64,000 nucleotides of DNA from Chloroflexia bacterium (lineage in GTDB: Bacteria > Chloroflexota > Chloroflexia > DTKN01), in contig JBDOIE010000110.1 of assembly GCA_041082245.1 (NCBI GenBank), positions 1,276 through 65,275 of the forward strand, read 5' to 3'. Position 1 is the first letter of the stretch. The number at the start of each line of letters is the position of its first letter. The notes under the pieces were generated by a model, which worked only from the letters and a program-made list of their open reading frames with translations, was not told the origin of the DNA and searched no databases. The position numbers and the translations under genes are program-made. Shown here piece by piece: positions 1-25,151 of this stretch.

Positions 1-810
1 CGCGCTCACGCCGGTGCCGGTGGGACTGCGGTCCACTTCGCCCTCGGCAAAGACGCAGATGTGCCGGCTGTGCACGCCTTCGCTCTGGGCAGGCGCTACA
101 AAGATCGTCCCGTAGAGGAAGCCCAGGTCCGATTCGGAGGGATGGTCGATCGGGCGGGAAGCCGCGATTGCGCGTTTGATGGCCCGGCCGCAGGCGATCA
201 GGTCGTGCAGTTCCGTCGCTACCCCGCGAAGCCCGAGGGCCTCGACGCGCACAAAGGCGTAGAAGGCGCCCCCGAAGGCCAGGTCGTAGCGGATGTACCC
301 CAGGCCGGGCAACCGCACCCGCTCGTCCAGCGCCAGCACGAACGAAGGGACGTTCTCGAAGCGCACGCTCGCCACGTGGCCGTCGCGGATGCGCGCCCGT
401 GCGGTGACCAGGCCGGCCGGCGTGTCCAGCCGCACGGTGGTTTCCGGCGCTTGCACGGGCAATACGCCGGTCTCCAGCAGCGCCTTCACCACACCGATCA
501 CCCCGTGGCCGCACATCGTGCTGTAGCCTTCGTTGTGCAGGAACAGGATCCCGACGTCGGCTTCCGGGCTGACCGGCGGGGTCACGATGCATCCATACAT
601 GTCCGCGTGGCCGCGGGGCTCCCACATCAGCGCTGTACGCAGGTGATCCCAGCGTTCCCGCAGGTACCGCCGGCGATCCAGGATCGTCCGGCCCTCGGGC
701 ATCGGAAAGCCGCTCACGATCACCCGCAGCGGTTCGCCTTCCGTGTGCACGTCCACCGCGGTGATGCGCAACCAGTCAGCGGGCGGTTCCCACCGCTCCA
801 GCGCTTCCAT
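1..810 (-). CDS. proline racemase / 4-hydroxyproline epimerase family protein (partial, 3' end beyond window)
   Basis: Minus-strand ATG at about 808-810 preceded by GAGGAAAGCG. Product MEALERWEPPADWLRITAVDVHTEGEPLRVIVSGFPMPEGRTILDRRRYLRERWDHLRTALMWEPRGHADMYGCIV... matches the family N-terminus. The frame stays open to position 1 and is absent from the ORF track because no stop lies in the window. Confidence 0.7.
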   Translation of the reverse strand, partial: MEALERWEPPADWLRITAVDVHTEGEPLRVIVSGFPMPEGRTILDRRRYLRERWDHLRTALMWEPRGHADMYGCIVTPPVSPEADVGILFLHNEGYSTMCGHGVIGVVKALLETGVLPVQAPETTVRLDTPAGLVTARARIRDGHVASVRFENVPSFVLALDERVRLPGLGYIRYDLAFGGAFYAFVRVEALGLRGVATELHDLIACGRAIKRAIAASRPIDHPSESDLGFLYGTIFVAPAQSEGVHSRHICVFAEGEVDRSPTGTGVSA

Positions 811-1489
811 CGCTTTCCTCCCCGGTTTGAGCGACGCCGTAGGCGCATCGGTCCAAGAGCGGGCAAGAGGAGCAACGGGGCCCGCGCTTGCGGCAGCGTT
901 CCTTGCCGTGGCGCACGATCAGGGCGTGGTACTCGTTAAAAAGCTGCGGATCGGGAGGCAAGTGCGCCATAAAGAGCGTCCGACAGTCCGCGTAAGATGC
1001 CCCCGCCGGGAGCAGCCCCAGCCGCTCTAGGAGGCGCATCGTATAGGCATCGACCACGAAAGTCGGATGGCCGGCCCCGTAGAGGAGGATGCTATCGGCC
1101 GTCTCCGGCCCGATACCCGGAACAGCAAGCAGCGCGCGGCGCACTGTTTCGAGCTCCCCTTGCGCCAGGCGCCCGGGGTCGCCCTCGTGCACGCGAAACA
1201 GGTACTCGAGAAAGGCGCGCAGGCGCGCCGCTTTCACCCGGTAGGTGCCGGCCGGCCGGAGTCGTTCCGAAAGTTCTTCCAGCGGGAGCGCGTACAGCCT
1301 CTCCGGCGAGAGCAGGCCCTCAGCCTTCAGTCGCGCAAGCGCGCGTTCTACGTTCCGCCAGGAAGTGTTCTGTGTCAGGATTGCGCCCACCATGATCTCG
1401 AAGGGGCTCTCTCCGGGCCACCAGCCCTGGGGCCCGTACGCCTGATACAGCCTGTGGTAGATTTCTATCAGGCGGGAACCCAGCTCCAC
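776..1489 (-). CDS. nth: endonuclease III (HhH-GPD DNA glycosylase with C-terminal 4Fe-4S Cys cluster)
   Basis: C-terminal 238 aa of ORF 776..2161: ...PFEIMVGAILTQNTSWRNVERA...VPGIGPETADSILLYGAGHPTFVVDAYTMRLLERLG...CRKRGPRCSSCPLLDRC. The upstream 220 aa are Arg/Pro-rich low-complexity, so I trimmed to the GTG at 1489, 3 nt after the stop of the upstream gene. Confidence 0.8.
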   Translation of the reverse strand: MELGSRLIEIYHRLYQAYGPQGWWPGESPFEIMVGAILTQNTSWRNVERALARLKAEGLLSPERLYALPLEELSERLRPAGTYRVKAARLRAFLEYLFRVHEGDPGRLAQGELETVRRALLAVPGIGPETADSILLYGAGHPTFVVDAYTMRLLERLGLLPAGASYADCRTLFMAHLPPDPQLFNEYHALIVRHGKERCRKRGPRCSSCPLLDRCAYGVAQTGEESDGSAGAVGTAR

Positions 1490-1493
1490 GATC

Positions 1494-2276
1494 CTATCTC
1501 CGACGCCGCACCCAGAGCCAGAGCGCCAGGAACACGAGCACTGTGCCCCCGAATGCCCAGGCCTCGAGGGACACCCGGAGCGGCCGGCGGCCTTTCTCCG
1601 GAGCAGCGGGCGACGGGACGGCCGTCGGCAGCGGCGTCGCGCTCGGGATGGGCGACGGCACCGCTTCCGTGGGGGAAAGCATCCGCAGCGCCGGAGTAGC
1701 ACTCGGGGAAACCGTCGGCGAAGGCGGGACGGTCGGGACGAGGGAAGGGGACGGGGTTGCCGGGGGCGCCGGAGATGTCGGGGTAGGGGTAGGCGCCGCT
1801 GCCTGCGCGAGCATCTCCTCCCAGGTTGCGAGCCCGGGAGGCGTCTTGCCGTCCCCCCAGACCCAGCCGTCCGCATCGCCGTCGCGCAGGTGGCGCTCCC
1901 CTGCGCCGACAGGCGAATAAATCCAGCCGGCATCGCTCCACTGAAAATAGCTCCAGTAGCGGCAGGGAGTTCCCCGACAGGCGCAGAAACATTCCTGCGG
2001 CATCGGGAGACATCCGACGCCTTCGATCGCACAGAGCGCTGTACCAATGCCAAAGCCGGGGAGCAGTGCGACGTCCAGCCCTGAGCGCTGCAGCAGCTCG
2101 ACGCCGGTGATCGATTCCTCCGCGAACTCGACCAGACGCACGACGATCCGCCCGTCCCCAAAGTCCACCACGAGCGCTGCGCGATGGGGCCCCTGTGCCT
2201 CCCCGGGCCCCGGTACGAGGGCTACCGCAAGGACCGATATCGCCGCAATCGCCCACCACAGTTGCCGTTTGCCCAC
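1494..2276 (-). CDS. secreted DUF4430-like (transcobalamin beta-domain-like) protein with Pro/Thr-rich linker and C-terminal TM anchor
   Basis: ORF 1494..2417 trimmed to GTG (V48) preceded by ACGGAG. Signal peptide KRQLWWAIAAISVLAVALVPGPGEAQG. Domain ...SITGVELLQRSGLDVAL...RYWSYFQWSDAGWIYSPVGAGERHLRDGDADGWVWGDG fits the W/G/DGD pattern of PF14478. It is followed by a PTPTPTSPAPP linker and the hydrophobic tail TVLVFLALWLWVRRRR. Confidence 0.6.
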   Translation of the reverse strand: MGKRQLWWAIAAISVLAVALVPGPGEAQGPHRAALVVDFGDGRIVVRLVEFAEESITGVELLQRSGLDVALLPGFGIGTALCAIEGVGCLPMPQECFCACRGTPCRYWSYFQWSDAGWIYSPVGAGERHLRDGDADGWVWGDGKTPPGLATWEEMLAQAAAPTPTPTSPAPPATPSPSLVPTVPPSPTVSPSATPALRMLSPTEAVPSPIPSATPLPTAVPSPAAPEKGRRPLRVSLEAWAFGGTVLVFLALWLWVRRRR

Positions 2277-2376
2277 GGGCTGCTCCGTATGCAAAACGTC
2301 GCCGTGAATCCCCGTAATCCTTCCCTTGGGGTAGACGAAGGCAATGCCTTCGTCCACCCCAAGGGAGGAACCATCG

Positions 2377-2916
2377 CTAATACTCGATCCCCGCACGCGC
2401 GGGCACCCCGGATGCATAGGGATGCTTGATCTCCCGCATCTCGGTCACGAGGTCCGCCCGCGCGAGCAGTTCTTGCGGCGCGCGCCGTCCGGTGAGGATC
2501 AGCTCGACCTGCTCGGGACGCTCGTCGAGCAGCCCCAGTACCTCGCGAAGCGAAAGGAGCCCGAAATGAAGGGCAACGCACACCTCATCCAGGACGACGA
2601 TGTCATAGCAGCCGCTGAGAAGGGCTTCCCGGGCCCGGGCGAGGCCGTCGCGGGCGCAGCGGATGTCCTCCGGGGTGGCCCGCTCGACGTGCACGAAGGA
2701 AGGCCGGCCGTACTGCTCGATCGTCAGATAGGGGGTAAGAAGGCGGGCGGCCTCGAGCTCCCCGTACGGCTGGCCCTTCATGAACTGGCCGATGTAGGTG
2801 CGCAGGCCGTGCCCTGCTGCGCGCAGCGCCAGCCCGAGCGCAGCCGTCGTCTTTCCCTTGCCGTCCCCGGTATACACCTGCACCAGTCCGCGACGTTGTT
2901 CCCTTGCCTGGGCCAT
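2377..2916 (-). CDS. cobO: cob(I)yrinic acid a,c-diamide / cob(I)alamin adenosyltransferase (CobA/CobO/BtuR family)
   Basis: MAQAREQRRGLVQVYTGDGKGKTTAALGLALRAAGHGLRTYIGQFMKG... P-loop GDGKGKTT typical of the family. Internal ATG (M28 of the ORF) has a GGAGG RBS. The first 27 aa of the ORF are treated as a spurious extension. Confidence 0.85.
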   Translation of the reverse strand: MAQAREQRRGLVQVYTGDGKGKTTAALGLALRAAGHGLRTYIGQFMKGQPYGELEAARLLTPYLTIEQYGRPSFVHVERATPEDIRCARDGLARAREALLSGCYDIVVLDEVCVALHFGLLSLREVLGLLDERPEQVELILTGRRAPQELLARADLVTEMREIKHPYASGVPARAGIEY

Positions 2917-2941
2917 AGGGACCTCCACTGTTAGCGCTTGA

Positions 2942-4021
2942 TCAGCGATGCGCGCAGGCGCGCCAACGCAGGGCGAGCCCCAGGAGCATTGCCACACCGC
3001 CGACGCCCGCCAGCACTGCTGGTCCCTGACCCGGCAGCCCGGTCTTGGGCAAGAGTACGGGCTCGGCGAGCGGTGTGTGCACGAGCGGGAACGGGCGCAG
3101 CATGAGCGCCACGATCGCCTGGTAGGTGGCGAGCGCGTTTTCCCCCGGGACTGCCGCCTGCCACAGGAACGCCCCGCTGGGAAGCTGAAGGTTCAGGAGC
3201 GCGTGCAAGGGGGTTTTCCCGTTCCGGGTCCAGGAGGGGCCTTCTGGGTCCTCCCCCGCAGCCACCAGCGCCTGGATGACGTACGCCGTGGAATTTGCAT
3301 CCGTGTCCGTGCCCCAGGGGCTGGGCTTCTGGTAGGGAAAGCCTCCGTCGTCGTTCTGCTGGGTGTGCAGGTAGGCGAGAGCATTCTGAATGGCTGCCTC
3401 TCCGGCCGGAACACCGGCCGCAATAAGCGCCTGGATGGCCAGCGCGGTGGAGTTCGTGTCGGCGCCGCCGGGCGCGGGGTCCCCGCTCCACGACCAGCCA
3501 CCTTCCGGGGTCTGTGCCTGCTTCAGCCAGCGTACGGCGGGATCCGGGATGGGCCGGCCGACCGAGGCGAGGGCGAGCATCGCGAAGGCGTGGCCGGCAA
3601 GGTCGGTCCCGTAATGTCCCGACGCGGGGTCATAGCTCTTGTCCAGGGCCGCCAGCAGATCCACCCCTCCGAAGGCCCGCGGATCCTTGCCCGCGCAAAC
3701 TGCGGCCAGGATCGTCTTGGCGGCGCTGCCTGCGCTCGCAGCGACTTCAGCGGCGTGTTGACCCAGGTAGGAAATCGGCGAATTGCCTTCCCGAAGGAAA
3801 CCGTTCGGGTCGCCATCCACAGCACAGATGGCAAAGACGGCATCCGCGGTAGACCCCGGGCCGAAACCAGGGAAGCTGCCGTCCGGTTGCTGTTGGGCGG
3901 CGACCCACGCCAGCGAGCCGAGCGCGGCACCGCGGTATGGCCCGGCGGCTTGTACGGTGGCTACAGGGACGATCGCGTACACGACCAGAGCCAGCGCCAT
4001 AAGGAAACGAGAGGTGCGCAT
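2942..4021 (-). CDS. prenyltransferase/terpene-cyclase (alpha6-alpha6 barrel) repeat protein, secreted, LPXTG cell-wall anchored
   Basis: ATG (M8 of the ORF) preceded by AGGAGGATACTGT. Signal peptide MRTSRFLMALALVVYAIVPVATVQA. Repeated Q-x-x-DGG-(F/W) motifs (QQQPDGSF, QTPEGGWSW, QQNDDGGFPY, QLPSGAFLW). C-terminal LPKTG + hydrophobic stretch + RWRACAHR sortase signal. Confidence 0.7.
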   Translation of the reverse strand: MRTSRFLMALALVVYAIVPVATVQAAGPYRGAALGSLAWVAAQQQPDGSFPGFGPGSTADAVFAICAVDGDPNGFLREGNSPISYLGQHAAEVAASAGSAAKTILAAVCAGKDPRAFGGVDLLAALDKSYDPASGHYGTDLAGHAFAMLALASVGRPIPDPAVRWLKQAQTPEGGWSWSGDPAPGGADTNSTALAIQALIAAGVPAGEAAIQNALAYLHTQQNDDGGFPYQKPSPWGTDTDANSTAYVIQALVAAGEDPEGPSWTRNGKTPLHALLNLQLPSGAFLWQAAVPGENALATYQAIVALMLRPFPLVHTPLAEPVLLPKTGLPGQGPAVLAGVGGVAMLLGLALRWRACAHR

Positions 4022-4040
4022 ACAGTATCCTCCTGTTGGC

Positions 4041-4070
4041 AAAACAAGAACCCCCTCCTTTCGGAGGGGG
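4041..4070 (-). terminator. riboswitch expression-platform intrinsic terminator (8-bp GC stem CCCCCTCC/GGAGGGGG, loop GAAA, then UUCUUGUUUU)
   Basis: On the minus strand the hairpin ccccctccgaaaggaggggg is followed by ttcttgtttt, directly upstream of the AGGAGG RBS of the 4021 gene and downstream of the cobalamin aptamer. Confidence 0.55.
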
Positions 4071-4134
4071 AAAGCAATCGGACAAATTCTTCTTGCTCTC
4101 TCACCCCCTTTCCGCGAAGGTGGTCAAGAGAACG

Positions 4135-4290
4135 GACGGAGGTGGGCGACCTGGCTTGGGTGGGATAGGGATCCCCACCCTCACAGTTGCGGGACAGCAC
4201 CGGACTTGCACCGGTTTCCCCCTGGTTAGCCCTAGCATCCGGGCATCGGGCGCCTCCGCCGGCCGGGTTGACAATGTACCGCATTACCAC
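4135..4290 (-). ncRNA. cobalamin (B12) riboswitch aptamer
   Basis: The minus strand reads ...AACCAGGGGGAAACCGGTGCAAGTCCGGTGCTGTCCCGCAACTGTGAGGGTGGGG... This is the conserved GGGAA-N-GGTGnAAnTCC ... CCCGC(C/A)ACTGTGA core and B12 box of the cobalamin riboswitch class. Confidence 0.8.
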
Positions 4291-4297
4291 TGTCGTC

Positions 4298-4326
4298 AAT
4301 TTAGCACAAGGCGGGCCTCCTGTCAA
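4298..4326 (-). promoter_or_regulatory. sigma70-type promoter (TTGACA - 17 nt - TAAATT) driving the riboswitch leader
   Basis: The minus strand reads TTGACAggaggcccgccttgtgcTAAATT immediately upstream of the aptamer 5' end. Confidence 0.55.
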
Positions 4327-20776: not shown

Positions 20777-21412
20777 CTACGAGCCGATCAACGCCCGCGC
20801 GACCTCGACCGCGGTCGCGGCGTCCGGCGCGTAGGCGTCGGCACCGATCTCACGGGCATAGGCATCCGTCAAAGGCGCGCCGCCGACCATCACTTTAACC
20901 CTGTCCCTCAGGCCTGCGCTCCGGAGTGCCTCGATCGTATCGCGCATCCGCACCATCGTCGTTGTGAGCAGCGCGCTCATCCCCACGATCTGCGGCCGAT
21001 GCTCTTCCACCGCGGCCACAAAGCGTTCCGGCGCGACGTCGGTCCCCAGGTCGATTACCTCAAAGCCGGCGCCCTCGAGCATCATGCGGACAAGGTTCTT
21101 GCCGATATCGTGGAGATCTCCCTGCACGGTCCCGATCACGTACGTGCCGATGCGCGGCACCCCGGTCTCGGCAAGCAAGGGCCGCAACACGGCCATCCCG
21201 GCATGCATGGCCCGCGCGGCAACCAGCACCTCAGGGACAAATAGCTCCCCGGCCTTAAAGTCCCGCCCGACACGGTCCATCCCTGCGATAAGGCCGGAAA
21301 GCACCTCCGCCGGCGAGTGGCCGCGTCCAAGGGCTTCCTGCACCAGCGCGGCAACCTCGGTGTGCTTTCCCTCGTACAGCTTTTCGGCGATTCGTTCCAG
21401 GATCTCCGACAT
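20777..21412 (-). CDS. corrinoid (B12-binding) protein of methyltransferase systems (MtbC/MttC/MtgC-like)
   Basis: MSEILERIAEKLYEG... N-terminal B12-binding_2 helical domain, then ...GTVQGDLHDIGKNLVRMMLEGAGFEVIDLG (DxHxxG cobalamin-binding motif) and the Rossmann B12-binding domain. Confidence 0.85.
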   Translation of the reverse strand: MSEILERIAEKLYEGKHTEVAALVQEALGRGHSPAEVLSGLIAGMDRVGRDFKAGELFVPEVLVAARAMHAGMAVLRPLLAETGVPRIGTYVIGTVQGDLHDIGKNLVRMMLEGAGFEVIDLGTDVAPERFVAAVEEHRPQIVGMSALLTTTMVRMRDTIEALRSAGLRDRVKVMVGGAPLTDAYAREIGADAYAPDAATAVEVARALIGS

Positions 21413-21445
21413 CGAGATGACCTCCTCACTGTAGGGAACGTCGTG

Positions 21446-22666
21446 TCAGGATCGGATCACTTCCCCCTCGCGGACGACGAGCCGCACCCGGTCGAGCGCC
21501 CCGATGTCCGCAAGCGGATCCCCTTCCACGGCGATCAGGTCGGCCAGCTTGCCGGGCTGTAGCGAACCGATCTCGTCCCAGCCCATAGCCTGGGCCGGCC
21601 AGAGCGTTGCCGCCTGGATCGCCTGCATCGGGGAGGCACCGTATGCCACAAGCCAGCGTACCTCGTCGGCCATCGCGGCAAAGCGCACACCGCCCAGCCA
21701 GGAGTCCGTGCCGGCCGCGATCTTCAACCCCGCCTGGAGAGCGCAGGCCATCGAGGCATGCTTCTTCTCCCGGTATTCCAGCGTTTCCTCGTATTCCTTC
21801 TGCGCGCGCCGGGCAACCTCCGGATCGGGATCGAAGCGCCGTCGGTCGCACCACTTCAGGTACTCCTCGCCGATGTTCAGCGTGGGCACCCAGGTGATCC
21901 CCCGGGCAGCTGCCAGTTCGATCTCCTCGGGCGAGGGAGTGCCATGTTCGAAGGTATCCACACCGGCCTCGATCGCCATGCGCTGGGAGGGCGGTTTGGA
22001 GGTATGGCAGGTCACCTTCTTCCCGAGCCGGTGCGCCTCGTCGACCGCGGCGTTCAGCTCTTCCTGTGTCAGGTCTGCCCCGTTGTTCGCCAGTTTGATG
22101 AAATCGGCCCCTGCCCGCACCTCCTCGCGCACCGCGCGCCGGAAACCGTAGGGGCCGTCCGCCTCGTTCGCCAGGCCAGGAAGGTAATGCACATGCCCAC
22201 CGGTCGGGACGATCAGCCGGCCGGAAACGTACACCTTGGGGCCCGGGATGCGCCCCCGTTCGATCGCCCGCTTGACGTCGAACATGATCTGGTCCACCGA
22301 GCCGGTATCCCGCACGGTGGTGATCCCGGCCCAGAGCGCCTCGCGCAGCCGCTGAGCAGCGACCAGGGCGATCATGACCGGGGAGTAGACGAGGGCGTTT
22401 TCGGGCTCGTAAGTGTAAGTGGCAGAGTCGGGTTCTTCCCAATAGTAGGTCGGGTGGACGTGCATGTCGATCAACCCGGGAAGGAGGCACCCGTCCGGGT
22501 ACTCGAGCACCCGGGCTTCGGGCGGCGGAGTGGGCGCACCGGCCGCCGGACCGGCGTAGACGATCCGCCTGCCGGAAACGGCGACTGCGCCGGGCGATAT
22601 GGCAGGGCCACCCAGCCCGTCGATCAGCCAGCGCGCGCGCACGAGCAGCGTGATCGGTTCGCTCAT
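21446..22666 (-). CDS. amidohydrolase-family metal-dependent hydrolase
   Basis: ...LLPGLIDMHVHPTY... (HxH), ...KVTCHTSKP..., ...AAGTDSWLG... The amidohydrolase_1 metal ligands. ATG overlaps the upstream MttB-family stop (ATGA). Confidence 0.8.
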   Translation of the reverse strand: MSEPITLLVRARWLIDGLGGPAISPGAVAVSGRRIVYAGPAAGAPTPPPEARVLEYPDGCLLPGLIDMHVHPTYYWEEPDSATYTYEPENALVYSPVMIALVAAQRLREALWAGITTVRDTGSVDQIMFDVKRAIERGRIPGPKVYVSGRLIVPTGGHVHYLPGLANEADGPYGFRRAVREEVRAGADFIKLANNGADLTQEELNAAVDEAHRLGKKVTCHTSKPPSQRMAIEAGVDTFEHGTPSPEEIELAAARGITWVPTLNIGEEYLKWCDRRRFDPDPEVARRAQKEYEETLEYREKKHASMACALQAGLKIAAGTDSWLGGVRFAAMADEVRWLVAYGASPMQAIQAATLWPAQAMGWDEIGSLQPGKLADLIAVEGDPLADIGALDRVRLVVREGEVIRS

Positions 22667-24165
22667 AGGGCACCTCCCGCGCGGGCATCCGCCTCCGCGA
22701 CGATCGCCCGCAGCGTTTCCTGCACCTGGGGCGGGAGAGGCTTCGGTTCGTGGGAAGCCAGAATCGAGCGCGCGAACTCACGGGCGTTCCGCACGGCATC
22801 CGGCCGGCCGGCATCCACCCAGGCAGCATAGGCCCGCCGATCGAACAGGCGCGGGTACCACACCTCGCGGTAGTGGCGCGCCGTGTGCGGCGACTCAAGG
22901 AAATTCCCGCCCGGGCCCACCTCGTGGATCACGTCCAGTGCGAGCGTCTCGGGGGTGATCTCGATCCCGCGGAGCAGGCGGCGCACCAGCCCGATCACCT
23001 CGTTCCCCAGGACGATCATCTCGTAGGAGCAGGTCAGGCCCGATTCGATATAGCCGACATCGTGCACGAGGTTCGCGCCGGAGAGGGCGGTCCAGAGGAT
23101 CCAGAGCGCGCTCTCGACCCCGGCTTGCAGGTCGGCCGCTTTCGAGTCCGAGCAGCCGGCAAACCCCCACACCGGCAGGTGGTAGTAGTAATGGGCCAGT
23201 TCTGCCATCGCCATGCAGTGGAGCATGAACTCGGGACCCGCGTAGACGCCCACCATCGTGCGCATGTCGAGCGGGCCGCTCCCCGAGCCCCACACGAACG
23301 GGGTTCCCGGCCGACGCAGCTGCGCGATGACCAGGCCGCTCAGCACCTCCGCGTTGGCCATCGCCAGGCTACCGGCCGAGGTGACCGGCGCCGAAGCCCC
23401 TTCCAGCGGCCCCGGCGCGTACACGAGCGGCAGGCCGTGATCCGCCATACGGAGCAGCTTCCGCAGCACAACCTCGGAGTGACGCAAAGGGGAGGAGGGT
23501 TCCAGGTAGGCCAGGAGGAACGGCTTGAGAGCGAGCTCCCGGGGCCCGCCGGCGACTGCCTCGGCCATGGCGATGATGTCCGCAAGGCCCCGATCGTCCC
23601 ATGCGGTGAACACGATCGGCTTGACCGTGTTTTCGAGCATCGCCAGGAACGAGTGACGGTCCGCGGTTTCGGCCGGCACGTCTGACGGGAGCGCCATCGA
23701 CATGACAAAGTCGAGGTGGGGGAGGGCATCCGTCAGGCGGGCCGTCTGCGCGACGTCCGAAAGGCGCGAAGGCCGGCGCTCTCCCGTCTCCAGGTCGATC
23801 GTGTTCGGCAAGTCCGAGCCGGTGCCGAAGTAGCAGCGATGCCCTTCGAGAAAGGCGCGTGGCTCGCCGGTGCGGTCGCACAGCACCACGCGCGAGGGGG
23901 CGCGCTGCAACGCCTCTTCCACCACCGCAGCAGGGAACCGCACGAGCGTCTCGTCGCTCACGATGCAGCCGGCTTCCTGGAGCAGGGTGCGCGCTTCGGC
24001 CTCGTACACGCGTACGCCGGTACGACGGAGGATTTCGAGCGAGGCCAAGTGGATCTCCTCCAGCTGGGCATCCGAGAGCATCCGAAAGCCGGAGGGGCGA
24101 GGGCTCACCGGTTCGACGGAATCCGAGAGCCCCGGTTTCCTGGGCGAGAGCGGTACGTTCGACAT
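22663..24165 (-). CDS. MttB-superfamily (non-pyrrolysine) quaternary-amine:corrinoid methyltransferase (MtgB/MtpB/MtcB-like)
   Basis: MSNVPLSPRKPGLSDS...RMLSDAQLEEIHLASLEILRRTGVRVY... TIM-barrel MttB family. The ORF is uninterrupted, so there is no in-frame UAG. ATG (M52 of the ORF) after GAGGAGG. Confidence 0.85.
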   Translation of the reverse strand: MSNVPLSPRKPGLSDSVEPVSPRPSGFRMLSDAQLEEIHLASLEILRRTGVRVYEAEARTLLQEAGCIVSDETLVRFPAAVVEEALQRAPSRVVLCDRTGEPRAFLEGHRCYFGTGSDLPNTIDLETGERRPSRLSDVAQTARLTDALPHLDFVMSMALPSDVPAETADRHSFLAMLENTVKPIVFTAWDDRGLADIIAMAEAVAGGPRELALKPFLLAYLEPSSPLRHSEVVLRKLLRMADHGLPLVYAPGPLEGASAPVTSAGSLAMANAEVLSGLVIAQLRRPGTPFVWGSGSGPLDMRTMVGVYAGPEFMLHCMAMAELAHYYYHLPVWGFAGCSDSKAADLQAGVESALWILWTALSGANLVHDVGYIESGLTCSYEMIVLGNEVIGLVRRLLRGIEITPETLALDVIHEVGPGGNFLESPHTARHYREVWYPRLFDRRAYAAWVDAGRPDAVRNAREFARSILASHEPKPLPPQVQETLRAIVAEADARAGGAL

Positions 24166-24182
24166 CGGACCTCCTCTAGAGC

Positions 24183-25151
24183 CTATTGTAGCCGCACACG
24201 CGGGTCGATCACCGCGTAGAGCAAGTCCACGACGAAATTCATCACCACGATGGCCACCGCGGCGAAGGTGATCGTGCCGACGATCACCGGCACGTCCAGG
24301 TTGCGGATGGCGCGCCACATCTCGAAGCCGATCCCGGGCCAGGAAAAGACCGCCTCGATGAGCACCAGGCCGCCCAGGTAGTAGGCAAGGTCCATACCGA
24401 TCATGCTGACGATCGGCTGGATCGCGTTGCGCAGGACGTGGCGAAAGAGCACCGCCGTTTCGGAAAGGCCCTTGGCACGGGCCGTGCGCACGAAATCGGC
24501 CTGCAGGATGTCCAGCATGCTGGAGCGGAGCATCCGCGCGTACCAGGCGGCACCGGCCAACCCCAGGGTGATCGCCGGCAGGATGAGATGTTTGAAACTC
24601 CCGTGGCCCCCCAGCGGCAGGATCGGCCAGCGGTAGCCAAAGAGGTAGAGCAACACCAGCCCGAGCCAGAACGAGGGCGCGGAGACGCCAAAGAGCGCCA
24701 GCAGCATCGCCGTGCGGTCCCAGATGCTGCGCTGCTTGTAGGCAGAAACGATACCTACCGGGATGCCGAGTACCACCTCCACGATCACACCGGAAACGGC
24801 CAGTTGCGCGGTGGCGGGGATCCGCTGGGCGAGGATCTCGGCCACGGGGCGCTGCTGGTAGTAGGAGGTGCCCAGATCTCCGTGCAGCAGGTGGTTCAGG
24901 TAACGCAGGAATTGCGTATCGACCGCGCGCGCCAGGTCTCCCGCGAAGAGCGCCCCGAGGTCCAGGAAAAGGGGACGGTTCAGGCCGAGGTGTTCACGGA
25001 TGAGCTCCAGCGTTTCAGGACGGGCCCGAGGGCCGGCAACCGCACGCGCCGGGTCGGCCGGGATCATATAGGCGATGACAAAGGTCACCACCAGGATAGC
25101 GCCGACCACGAGCAGCATACCGAGGAAGCGGCGGATGATGTAACGGACCAT
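24183..25151 (-). CDS. ABC transporter permease, DppB/OppB-like
   Basis: MVRYIIRRFLGMLLVVGAILVVTFVIAYMIPADPAR... The canonical DppB N-terminus and the BPD_transp_1 core. Confidence 0.85.
   Translation of the reverse strand: MVRYIIRRFLGMLLVVGAILVVTFVIAYMIPADPARAVAGPRARPETLELIREHLGLNRPLFLDLGALFAGDLARAVDTQFLRYLNHLLHGDLGTSYYQQRPVAEILAQRIPATAQLAVSGVIVEVVLGIPVGIVSAYKQRSIWDRTAMLLALFGVSAPSFWLGLVLLYLFGYRWPILPLGGHGSFKHLILPAITLGLAGAAWYARMLRSSMLDILQADFVRTARAKGLSETAVLFRHVLRNAIQPIVSMIGMDLAYYLGGLVLIEAVFSWPGIGFEMWRAIRNLDVPVIVGTITFAAVAIVVMNFVVDLLYAVIDPRVRLQ

Follow-up and report, generated by a model that had tools for sequence, protein, structure and literature searches.

The subject of this analysis is a stretch of 64,000 nucleotides (64 kb, hereafter the window) from a Chloroflexia bacterium (GTDB lineage Chloroflexota; Chloroflexia; DTKN01), taken from contig JBDOIE010000110.1 of assembly GCA_041082245.1 (positions 1,276 to 65,275 of the forward strand), and within it a run of genes on the minus strand which is led by a cobalamin riboswitch. 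In the direction of transcription a promoter, the riboswitch, a terminator and a ribosome-binding site (RBS) are followed by genes for a secreted toroid protein (gene 1), the adenosyltransferase CobO (gene 2), a cysteine-rich, transcobalamin-beta-like protein (gene 3) and a DNA glycosylase (gene 4). With a probability of roughly 0.7 we consider this locus to be a B12-repressed corrinoid-salvage transcription unit of a monoderm bacterium in which the toroid and a beta-grasp domain clamp a corrinoid. An initial reading of the letters alone (the sequence-only reading) had suggested a two-polypeptide counterpart of transcobalamin; the fold of gene 3, the gene context, single-chain fusions in relatives and the anchoring signals all support this.

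The leader contains every element which the sequence-only reading had listed. The promoter is of the sigma-70 type (4298-4326, minus strand), TTGACA and TAAATT being separated by 17 nucleotides, with a TG extension before the latter, (TG)cTAAATT, and 10 of 12 matches. It is the only sigma-70-like site between 500 and 4800, where shuffled sequence yields 0.5. The aptamer begins 26 nucleotides further on and occupies 4124-4272; the Rfam covariance model of the cobalamin riboswitch, RF00174, matches over its full length (model positions 1-189) with 59.3 bits against a gathering score of 31.5 (E 3.6e-12). This is the sole Rfam match in the whole 64 kb. The P6 region is short, 58 model positions being replaced by 12 nucleotides. 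About 54 nucleotides downstream of the aptamer lies the intrinsic terminator of the expression platform (4041-4070), i.e., an 8-bp GC stem with a GAAA loop, CCCCCTCC-GAAA-GGAGGGGG, at 4070-4051 and the tail TTCTTGTTTT. Its U-tract is also able to pair with the region of the RBS, AGGAGG at 4029-4034, which was read from the sequence and is positioned 7 nucleotides before the ATG at 4021. An antiterminator pairing was looked for in the leader and none was resolved. The riboswitch and its expression platform constitute a 5' leader ahead of co-directional genes related to B12. A further terminator-like site at 1146-1130, inside gene 4, is taken as chance because two sites were found and 2.4 were expected.

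Gene 1 (2942-4021, minus strand, start ATG 4021) encodes 359 residues and is the proposed alpha half of a corrinoid binder. Its Pfam matches are SQHop_cyclase_C (1.5e-9; 37.8 bits against a gathering score of 26.1) and Prenyltrans (2.8e-6), and its predicted structure, with a mean predicted local distance difference test (pLDDT) value of 92.9, is an (alpha/alpha)6 toroid, as had been anticipated from the letters. In the model the fold appears superposable on the alpha domains of transcobalamin, intrinsic factor and haptocorrin. A PDB search with a profile of 47 toroid homologues returned squalene-hopene cyclase at 1e-22, and neither single-sequence nor profile searches of the PDB with gene 1 gave a transcobalamin match. 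The best NCBIfam match is the SCO2321 family (NF053823, 1.7e-34), with 119.4 bits below the cut-off of 300. The signal peptide ends in VQA, and the C-terminus, ...LLPKTGLPGQGPAVLAGVGGVAMLLGLALRWRACAHR, has the layout of a sortase substrate, in which a hydrophobic stretch and then basic residues come after LPKTG. An LPxTG-type sorting tail is present in nearly all of the 47 homologues, three of which match PF00746. The sequence-only reading had named the catalytic DxDD and DDxxD motifs as the hallmark of a genuine terpene cyclase; both are absent from gene 1 and 46 homologues. Because these motifs are missing throughout and sorting signals are almost universal, we class gene 1 as a toroid-superfamily protein which is exported and not catalytic. 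A specific kinship to the transcobalamin alpha domain is plausible; the comparisons alone are no proof.

Gene 3 (1494-2276, minus strand) encodes 260 residues and is the proposed beta half. Its GTG start at 2276 agrees with the N-terminus of an 80%-identical homologue of equal length. The protein consists of a signal peptide, a globular domain of about 115 residues, a stalk of about 85 residues rich in Pro, Thr and Ser (28% Pro) and a C-terminal transmembrane (TM) anchor ending in RRRR. With the sortase signal of gene 1 and the signal peptides of both proteins, the surface display proposed from the letters is well founded. An AlphaFold2 model computed with 40 homologues has pLDDT values above 90 across most of the domain (means of ten-residue blocks, 81-97) and predicts strands at 31-38 and 44-51, a helix at 58-63, a hairpin at 69-75/78-84 and further strands in 107-141. 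The beta-hairpin directly after the helix identifies the modelled domain as a beta-grasp core with the insert of transcobalamin-like SLBB domains. When the model was compared with the PDB by Foldseek, the top 17 matches comprised nothing but 3u7z, a bacterial DUF4430 protein, and beta domains from the transcobalamin family (transcobalamin, haptocorrin and intrinsic factor). The best was 5no0, the isolated human transcobalamin beta domain (E 1.7e-4; target-normalised template modelling score 0.67). Beyond these 17 the E-values jump to 0.17 or more, with ubiquitin-like folds.

At the level of sequence a different picture emerges. Searches of the PDB with gene 3, as single sequence and as profile, gave no transcobalamin match, and those matches which were obtained ran through the proline-rich linker only and were discarded as low-complexity noise. 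Public precomputed data place gene 3 in Pfam PF28005, 'SCO2322', with a match marked as faint, and the NCBIfam SCO2322 model NF040672 reaches 5.5e-6 and 26.8 bits, below its cut-off of 85. The resemblance to the DUF4430/transcobalamin beta domain is, in the predicted structure, visible at fold level only. Accordingly, the DUF4430-like label given by the sequence-only reading stands for the fold and falls for the Pfam model. Just after the hairpin insert, residues 82-105 (1962-2033, minus strand) hold six cysteines in the spacing C-x6-C-x6-C-x-C-x-C-x4-C. Across 40 homologues three of these cysteines never vary and a fourth hardly does, and the 12 closest homologues conserve all six without exception. 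Disulfide formation, binding of a metal and ligation of cobalt are conceivable roles.

Between the two halves lies gene 2 (2377-2916, minus strand), which encodes an ATP:cob(I)alamin adenosyltransferase of the CobO/CobA/BtuR type with 179 residues. The ATG at 2916 follows a GGAGG Shine-Dalgarno sequence by 7 nucleotides. The matches to PF02572 (6e-64, 215.8 bits), TIGR00708 (184 against a cut-off of 167.75) and NF004637 (198 against 185) confirm the identification made from the letters. Toroid and beta genes are thus co-directional and separated by cobO alone.

The gene context was examined in 64 related loci. These were collected by a scan with a beta-domain profile, built from a 12-sequence domain alignment, in one genome per species. 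Fifty-eight loci are from Chloroflexota (Chloroflexia, Anaerolineae, Thermoflexia, Ardenticatenia, Caldilineae and Dehalococcoidia) and six from Actinomycetota, among them one metagenome-assembled genome of Bifidobacteriaceae. Genes were typed by tblastn with reference queries; typing by single-linkage clustering of open reading frames was dropped after a near-total merger of the clusters, probably via linkers and fusions. The toroid gene adjoins the beta gene on the same strand in 55 of the 64 loci, and four of the nine exceptions are at a contig edge. A cobalamin riboswitch is positioned ahead of the cluster in 46-48 of the 64, and 11 of the remainder are cut by a contig edge. For these searches a covariance model was built from ten Rfam-confirmed leaders. 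The Rfam gathering score itself is reached by 17 Chloroflexota leaders, including the nine weakest matches of our own model. Of three Actinomycetota leaders compared with Rfam, that of the Bifidobacteriaceae locus (L061) is exactly at the score and two (L063 and L064) are of the cobalamin clan, below it.

The pair is followed by genes of an energy-coupling factor (ECF) transporter in 47 of the 64 loci. By Pfam these are the T component (CbiQ/EcfT), a fused double ATPase (AA', double ABC_tran) and an S component of the ECF_trnsprt family. The T components match EcfT chains of the 6fnp type. The S component (L010:6901-7677 and homologues) matches ECF_trnsprt in Pfam; among solved structures, the chains of known B12 ECF transporters included, no sequence relative was detectable. 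In the Actinomycetota (L060-L065) the order is riboswitch, toroid, beta, ecfT, ecfAA', ecfS. A cobalamin adenosyltransferase is part of the cluster in 13 of the 64 loci, four times of the CobA/O type and nine times of the PduO type (PF01923, 5.7e-60). Two non-homologous enzymes of the same function have been recruited, and this is therefore strong evidence for a corrinoid as the ligand.

The architecture of the leader is also shared. In the nearest relatives with the same gene order, L005 and L006, a GC-rich terminator and a TTGACA-17 promoter are kept: L005 has TTGACA-17-TATATT 25 nucleotides before the aptamer, i.e., the same promoter geometry as the window, and L006 has TTGACA-17-TACAGT. 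A scan for hairpins followed by a T-tract flagged 29 of 49 homologous leaders, mostly with a stem of 8-12 bp some 40-70 nucleotides past the aptamer; a few of the 29 look weak. The same scan gave no convincing terminator in Actinomycetota, where the gene starts 58-114 nucleotides after the aptamer.

Further evidence for a joint function comes from fusions. The family is a large one, the beta-domain profile collecting 3,747 clusters at 50% identity (E<=1e-3). Among the best matches P0241, P0243, P0255 and P0292 carry an N-terminal beta domain and a C-terminal Prenyltrans/SQHop toroid, and P0241 matches the SCO2321 and the SCO2322 NCBIfam models. In nine loci the beta and toroid matches are part of one open reading frame of 448-769 residues, with neither a signal peptide nor a linker between the domains. 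These fusions are bacterial full-length transcobalamin-like proteins with a reversed domain order. Since single-chain versions exist, the two genes of the window can be read as a split version. The fused beta-toroid paralogues retain four of the cysteines of gene 3. In public records members of the family are labelled 'hypothetical', 'cell wall anchor protein' or, misleadingly, 'terpene cyclase/mutase family protein'.

Fused beta-toroid proteins lack both an LPXTG motif and a TM anchor, as observed for L009:8517-9893, L014:6780-8546, L021:7872-9860, L032:2019-4163, L044:11-1357, L045:8461-9846, L056:9800-12109 and L058:8233-9765 as well as P0241 and P0243. They terminate in tails such as YFPFISR, YLPLILR, YLPVVFK, YMPVVIK, HLPTIAR, FLPVIAKQR and YLPIIQKN, in about half of the cases with a cysteine a few residues ahead. 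Such tails may represent a C-terminal signal for sorting or docking which has so far gone unnoticed.

The RNA elements, folds, anchoring signals, gene linkage and fusions are established by computation; that the two proteins pair up, bind a corrinoid and pass it on to a transporter is what we infer. With plentiful cobalamin the riboswitch would let the terminator at 4070-4041 form and transcription would stop; with scarce cobalamin RNA polymerase would read through into the genes. This shut-off is suggested by the usual behaviour of the riboswitch class and by the terminator. Sortase would fix the exported product of gene 1 to the cell wall, and the exported product of gene 3 would remain tethered to the membrane through its C-terminal helix, a flexible stalk of some 85 residues carrying the globular domain. 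Together, toroid and beta-grasp domain would then clamp one corrinoid between them, just as in transcobalamin the alpha and beta domains of one chain do. In most relatives the captured corrinoid would be handed to the dedicated ECF importer (S, T and fused AA') encoded just downstream; in the lineage of the window the ECF module is presumed to reside elsewhere under a riboswitch of its own, as in L003. Inside the cell CobO would adenosylate the imported corrinoid.

Several points weigh against this interpretation. No homologue of ecfT or ecfS was found anywhere in the 64 kb, and because the operon has no transporter gene the hand-over step is left without a visible partner. The Pfam models of the two transcobalamin domains fail on the window proteins: PF01122 (Cobalamin_bind) does not match gene 1 at E<=0.1, and PF14478 (DUF4430), the model by which the sequence-only reading would have gene 3 checked, does not match it at E<=0.1 either. 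Even at E<=1 PF14478 matches none of six beta-domain proteins from related loci. On the supporting side, PF01122 is matched individually by seven of the 47 toroid homologues (best E 3.6e-7). For the six-cysteine loop no counterpart that would explain it was identified. We know of no link to B12 for genes 4 and 5, the latter being a partial gene at the edge of the window. In the literature searched neither published binding data nor any other biochemical test were found for any member of the family, and the sole studied homologous system, Lsa1836-1840 of Latilactobacillus sakei, was assigned to haem uptake by Verplaetse et al. (2019; bioRxiv 10.1101/864751).

The missing transporter is put into perspective by the relatives. 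The layout riboswitch, toroid, cobO, beta is common to the window, L005 and L006, and L005 also has the glycosylase gene next. In L007 the order toroid, cobO, beta is followed directly by ecfT and ecfAA'. In L003, a close Chloroflexia relative, beta and glycosylase genes are present without an adjoining toroid gene; here a riboswitch very like that of the window (132 bits with our own model) leads ecfT-ecfAA'-ecfS at L003:9443-13259 (minus strand). This ECF operon is encoded on the other strand, about 3 kb from the beta gene. The simplest reading is that an ancestral single operon was split in the lineage of the window into separately riboswitch-controlled units; the importer would therefore lie outside the window. 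As a rule the toroid/beta pair accompanies an ECF importer as an accessory, a point which the sequence-only reading had missed, and the operon of the window is a rearranged one without the importer genes.

These comparisons bear directly on an alternative which we regard as unlikely, namely that the pair hoards corrinoid at the surface, as a store or a competitive sink, without a dedicated ECF partner, uptake proceeding by another route. L005 and L006, the closest relatives of the same layout, have no ECF genes within 10 kb downstream, and the window likewise has none. Surface B12-binding accessory proteins of Bacteroidetes are familiar, BtuG and BtuH being examples. Against hoarding stand the direct coupling of the pair to ECF genes in 47 of 64 loci, L007, where ECF genes follow the window-type order at once, and L003, where an ECF operon under a riboswitch has been retained close to the beta gene. 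Much less probable is that gene 1 is an enzyme, i.e., a terpene cyclase/mutase, a prenyltransferase or a toroid enzyme modifying wall polymers, behind a riboswitch whose position is incidental. The best sequence and structure matches of gene 1, squalene-hopene cyclase and class II terpene cyclase domains, and the public 'terpene cyclase/mutase' labels of homologues would speak for it. This view is severely weakened by the missing catalytic motifs in all 47 sequences and the export signals: gene 1 encodes just one toroid domain, which its signal peptide and LPXTG motif place outside the compartment which holds isoprenoid diphosphates. Further, the toroid gene remains linked to the beta gene and the riboswitch in Chloroflexota and Actinomycetota alike.

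The remaining alternatives concern the ligand. That the pair captures haem or another non-corrinoid tetrapyrrole finds its support in L. sakei: the operon is reported as an effective actor of haem uptake, a deletion mutant having been tested, and a modelled Lsa1840/Lsa1839 heterodimer accepted haem in docking (10.1101/864751). Large planar macrocycles do fit pockets of the transcobalamin type. We nevertheless hold haem to be a very improbable ligand in the family at hand; it is most weakened by the riboswitch and the adenosyltransferases, cobalamin-clan riboswitches leading 46-48 of 64 related loci and an adenosyltransferase being part of the cluster in 13 loci and in the window. No haem-related gene was seen among the annotated ones. 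A supply of cobalt or another metal for de novo B12 synthesis, with the Cys-rich beta domain as a metal binder feeding a transporter of the CbiQ/CbiO type, strikes us as highly doubtful, too. It is true that cobalt importers such as CbiMNQO are commonly under the control of cobalamin riboswitches, that the T component matches the Pfam family 'CbiQ', that gene 3 has six conserved cysteines and that 3u7z, its neighbour in structure, entered the PDB as a 'putative metal binding protein'. The cobalt view is weakened by the family of the S component, ECF_trnsprt without a match to CbiM or NikM, and by the fusions, in which toroid and SLBB domain, the architecture of transcobalamin, are joined in many relatives. 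In addition, bacteria with such proteins usually lack key enzymes of B12 biosynthesis, according to Burroughs et al. (PMC1796856). Clamping of a corrinoid by the toroid/beta pair is therefore the reading we prefer.

A more far-reaching version of the corrinoid reading is possible and is put forward tentatively, as we rate it well short of even odds. Toroid and beta domain might form a two-part relay which acts as the extracytoplasmic substrate-binding protein of an ECF transporter; the Cys loop might have an extra role in ligating cobalt or in removing the upper ligand, and in the lineage of the window the relay might have been uncoupled from the transporter operon and joined to cobO. To our knowledge ECF transporters as a class are defined by having no substrate-binding protein. 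If binding by the pair is true, ECF importers would have accessory binding proteins after all.

The comparison with the transcobalamin family of animals reveals similarities and differences. Transcobalamin, intrinsic factor and haptocorrin (PF01122 and PF14478) are likewise extracellular and consist of an (alpha/alpha)6 toroid and an SLBB domain with a hairpin insert; the two domains of one chain sandwich one cobalamin. In the window, unlike in transcobalamin, each half is a polypeptide of its own with its own anchor, one with LPXTG for the wall, the other with a stalk and a TM helix for the membrane, and the beta domain has a six-cysteine loop. The fused bacterial relatives run from beta to alpha, the reverse of the order in transcobalamin. 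The sequence identity of the window proteins to the transcobalamin family is only 11-18%, with PF01122 and PF14478 unmatched.

The bacterial side of this family has been described before. Burroughs, Balaji, Iyer and Aravind (2007; PMC1796856) defined the SLBB superfamily and noted that transcobalamin-like members occur in bacteria, where they have signal peptides, anchors of the Gram-positive kind and toroids fused at either end; the hairpin insert after the helix marks this clade. The genes were found to share operons with those for the ATPase CbiO and the membrane protein CbiQ, and a role in scavenging B12 or its precursors was predicted. A text search of that paper gave no mention of riboswitches, Chloroflexi or Streptomyces. 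Compared with its proteins, the clade of the window is a separate Pfam family, PF28005, and the locus has its halves split, cobO between them and no transporter after them. In L. sakei, the consulted passages of Verplaetse et al. (10.1101/864751) describe lsa1836-1840 as an ECF module with separate exported beta-like and alpha-like proteins, Lsa1840 and Lsa1839 being proposed as extracellular scavengers for the S component. There the ligand was assigned to haem; in the window the riboswitch and the adenosyltransferases point to corrinoids, and the ECF genes are absent. A B12 riboswitch is not mentioned in these passages of the preprint, which was not searched for the word.

The SCO2321 and SCO2322 families (NF053823 and NF040672; PF28005) are the best NCBIfam matches of genes 1 and 3, both below cut-off. 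Consecutive locus tags suggest that the two genes are neighbours in S. coelicolor. No function of these families was found in the literature searched.

The known B12 importers ECF-CbrT and BtuM, the latter a solitary S component, and the Bacteroidetes surface binders BtuG and BtuH serve the same task, capture or import of cobamides, usually under cobalamin riboswitches. We know of no extracytoplasmic partner used by the CbrT and BtuM systems. BtuG and BtuH have folds other than that of the toroid/beta pair. Unlike known B12 ECF systems, the S component of the window-type family has no sequence match to solved chains.

Thus, the kind of system is already known, as a prediction since 2007 and as a split pair with an ECF module since 2019, and the locus is a further member with a rearranged operon. 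The predictions of these earlier papers follow the same logic. What the locus adds is a clear regulatory tie to B12. Riboswitch linkage across two phyla and two unrelated types of adenosyltransferase constitute regulatory evidence for a corrinoid ligand, evidence of a kind absent from the examined passages of both earlier papers; it also bears on the question whether the L. sakei relative really carries haem. The uptake of cobamides in monoderms outside Firmicutes is poorly known, be it in Chloroflexota, with their corrinoid-dependent Dehalococcoidia, or in Actinomycetota such as Streptomyces and Bifidobacteriaceae. The pair is a well-supported and directly testable candidate for a B12 receptor in these two phyla. 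Should binding prove true, many 'terpene cyclase' annotations in Chloroflexota and Actinomycetota would need correction.

Elsewhere in the window, a corrinoid protein with B12-binding and B12-binding_2 domains (20777-21412) and an MttB-family protein (22663-24318) bear out the B12-dependent methyltransferase machinery which the sequence-only reading had noted in this region. Corrinoid protein, amidohydrolase and MttB-family methyltransferase are encoded in a row at 20777-24318 (minus strand), beside Opp/Dpp-type ABC permeases, and are a B12-dependent methyl-transfer system. The organism needs corrinoid because it encodes a corrinoid protein and an MttB-family methyltransferase.

The four co-directional, tightly spaced genes seen by that reading are indeed all on the minus strand; the run, however, does not end with them at 776. 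Gene 4 (776-1489, minus strand) encodes a DNA glycosylase of 237 residues, HhH-GPD/EndoIII-like (HhH-GPD 5.4e-14) with a C-terminal Cys cluster; every NCBIfam match is below its cut-off. Its GTG start at 1489 is 4 nucleotides past the stop of gene 3, to which it is translationally coupled. A glycosylase gene adjoins the beta gene in L002-L005 too, including Chloroflexia relatives without a toroid gene. Gene 5 (1-810, minus strand, partial) is of the proline racemase/hydroxyproline epimerase family (PF05544, Pro_racemase, 3.6e-87); it starts at 810, overlaps the end of gene 4 by 35 nucleotides and leaves the window. Because of this overlap the riboswitch-led run comprises at least five genes.

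The spacer between cobO and gene 3 (about 100-111 nucleotides) has a folding energy of -62.8 kcal/mol (z -7.4) and contains a strong hairpin at 2323-2365 (minus strand) with a near-perfect 21-bp stem and a 3-nucleotide loop. No U-tract comes after it, the window has no second copy of it, and the corresponding spacers of L005-L007 lack it. The hairpin may serve mRNA processing or stability and in this way set the ratio of upstream to downstream products.

Variations of the module were observed among the related loci. In L017 (8449-18300) two toroid/beta modules, each with its own riboswitch in front, follow one another on the same strand and precede just one ECF module. L011 (8888-18780) also has two toroid/beta modules, with a riboswitch before the second only. 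Other loci show the orders beta-toroid-beta or toroid-toroid-beta-beta, and L038 encodes a double toroid of 672 residues. In two Anaerolineae loci a divergent gene for selenocysteine tRNA (tRNA-Sec) is positioned just upstream of the riboswitch, at L007:6-101 and L010:1715-1810.

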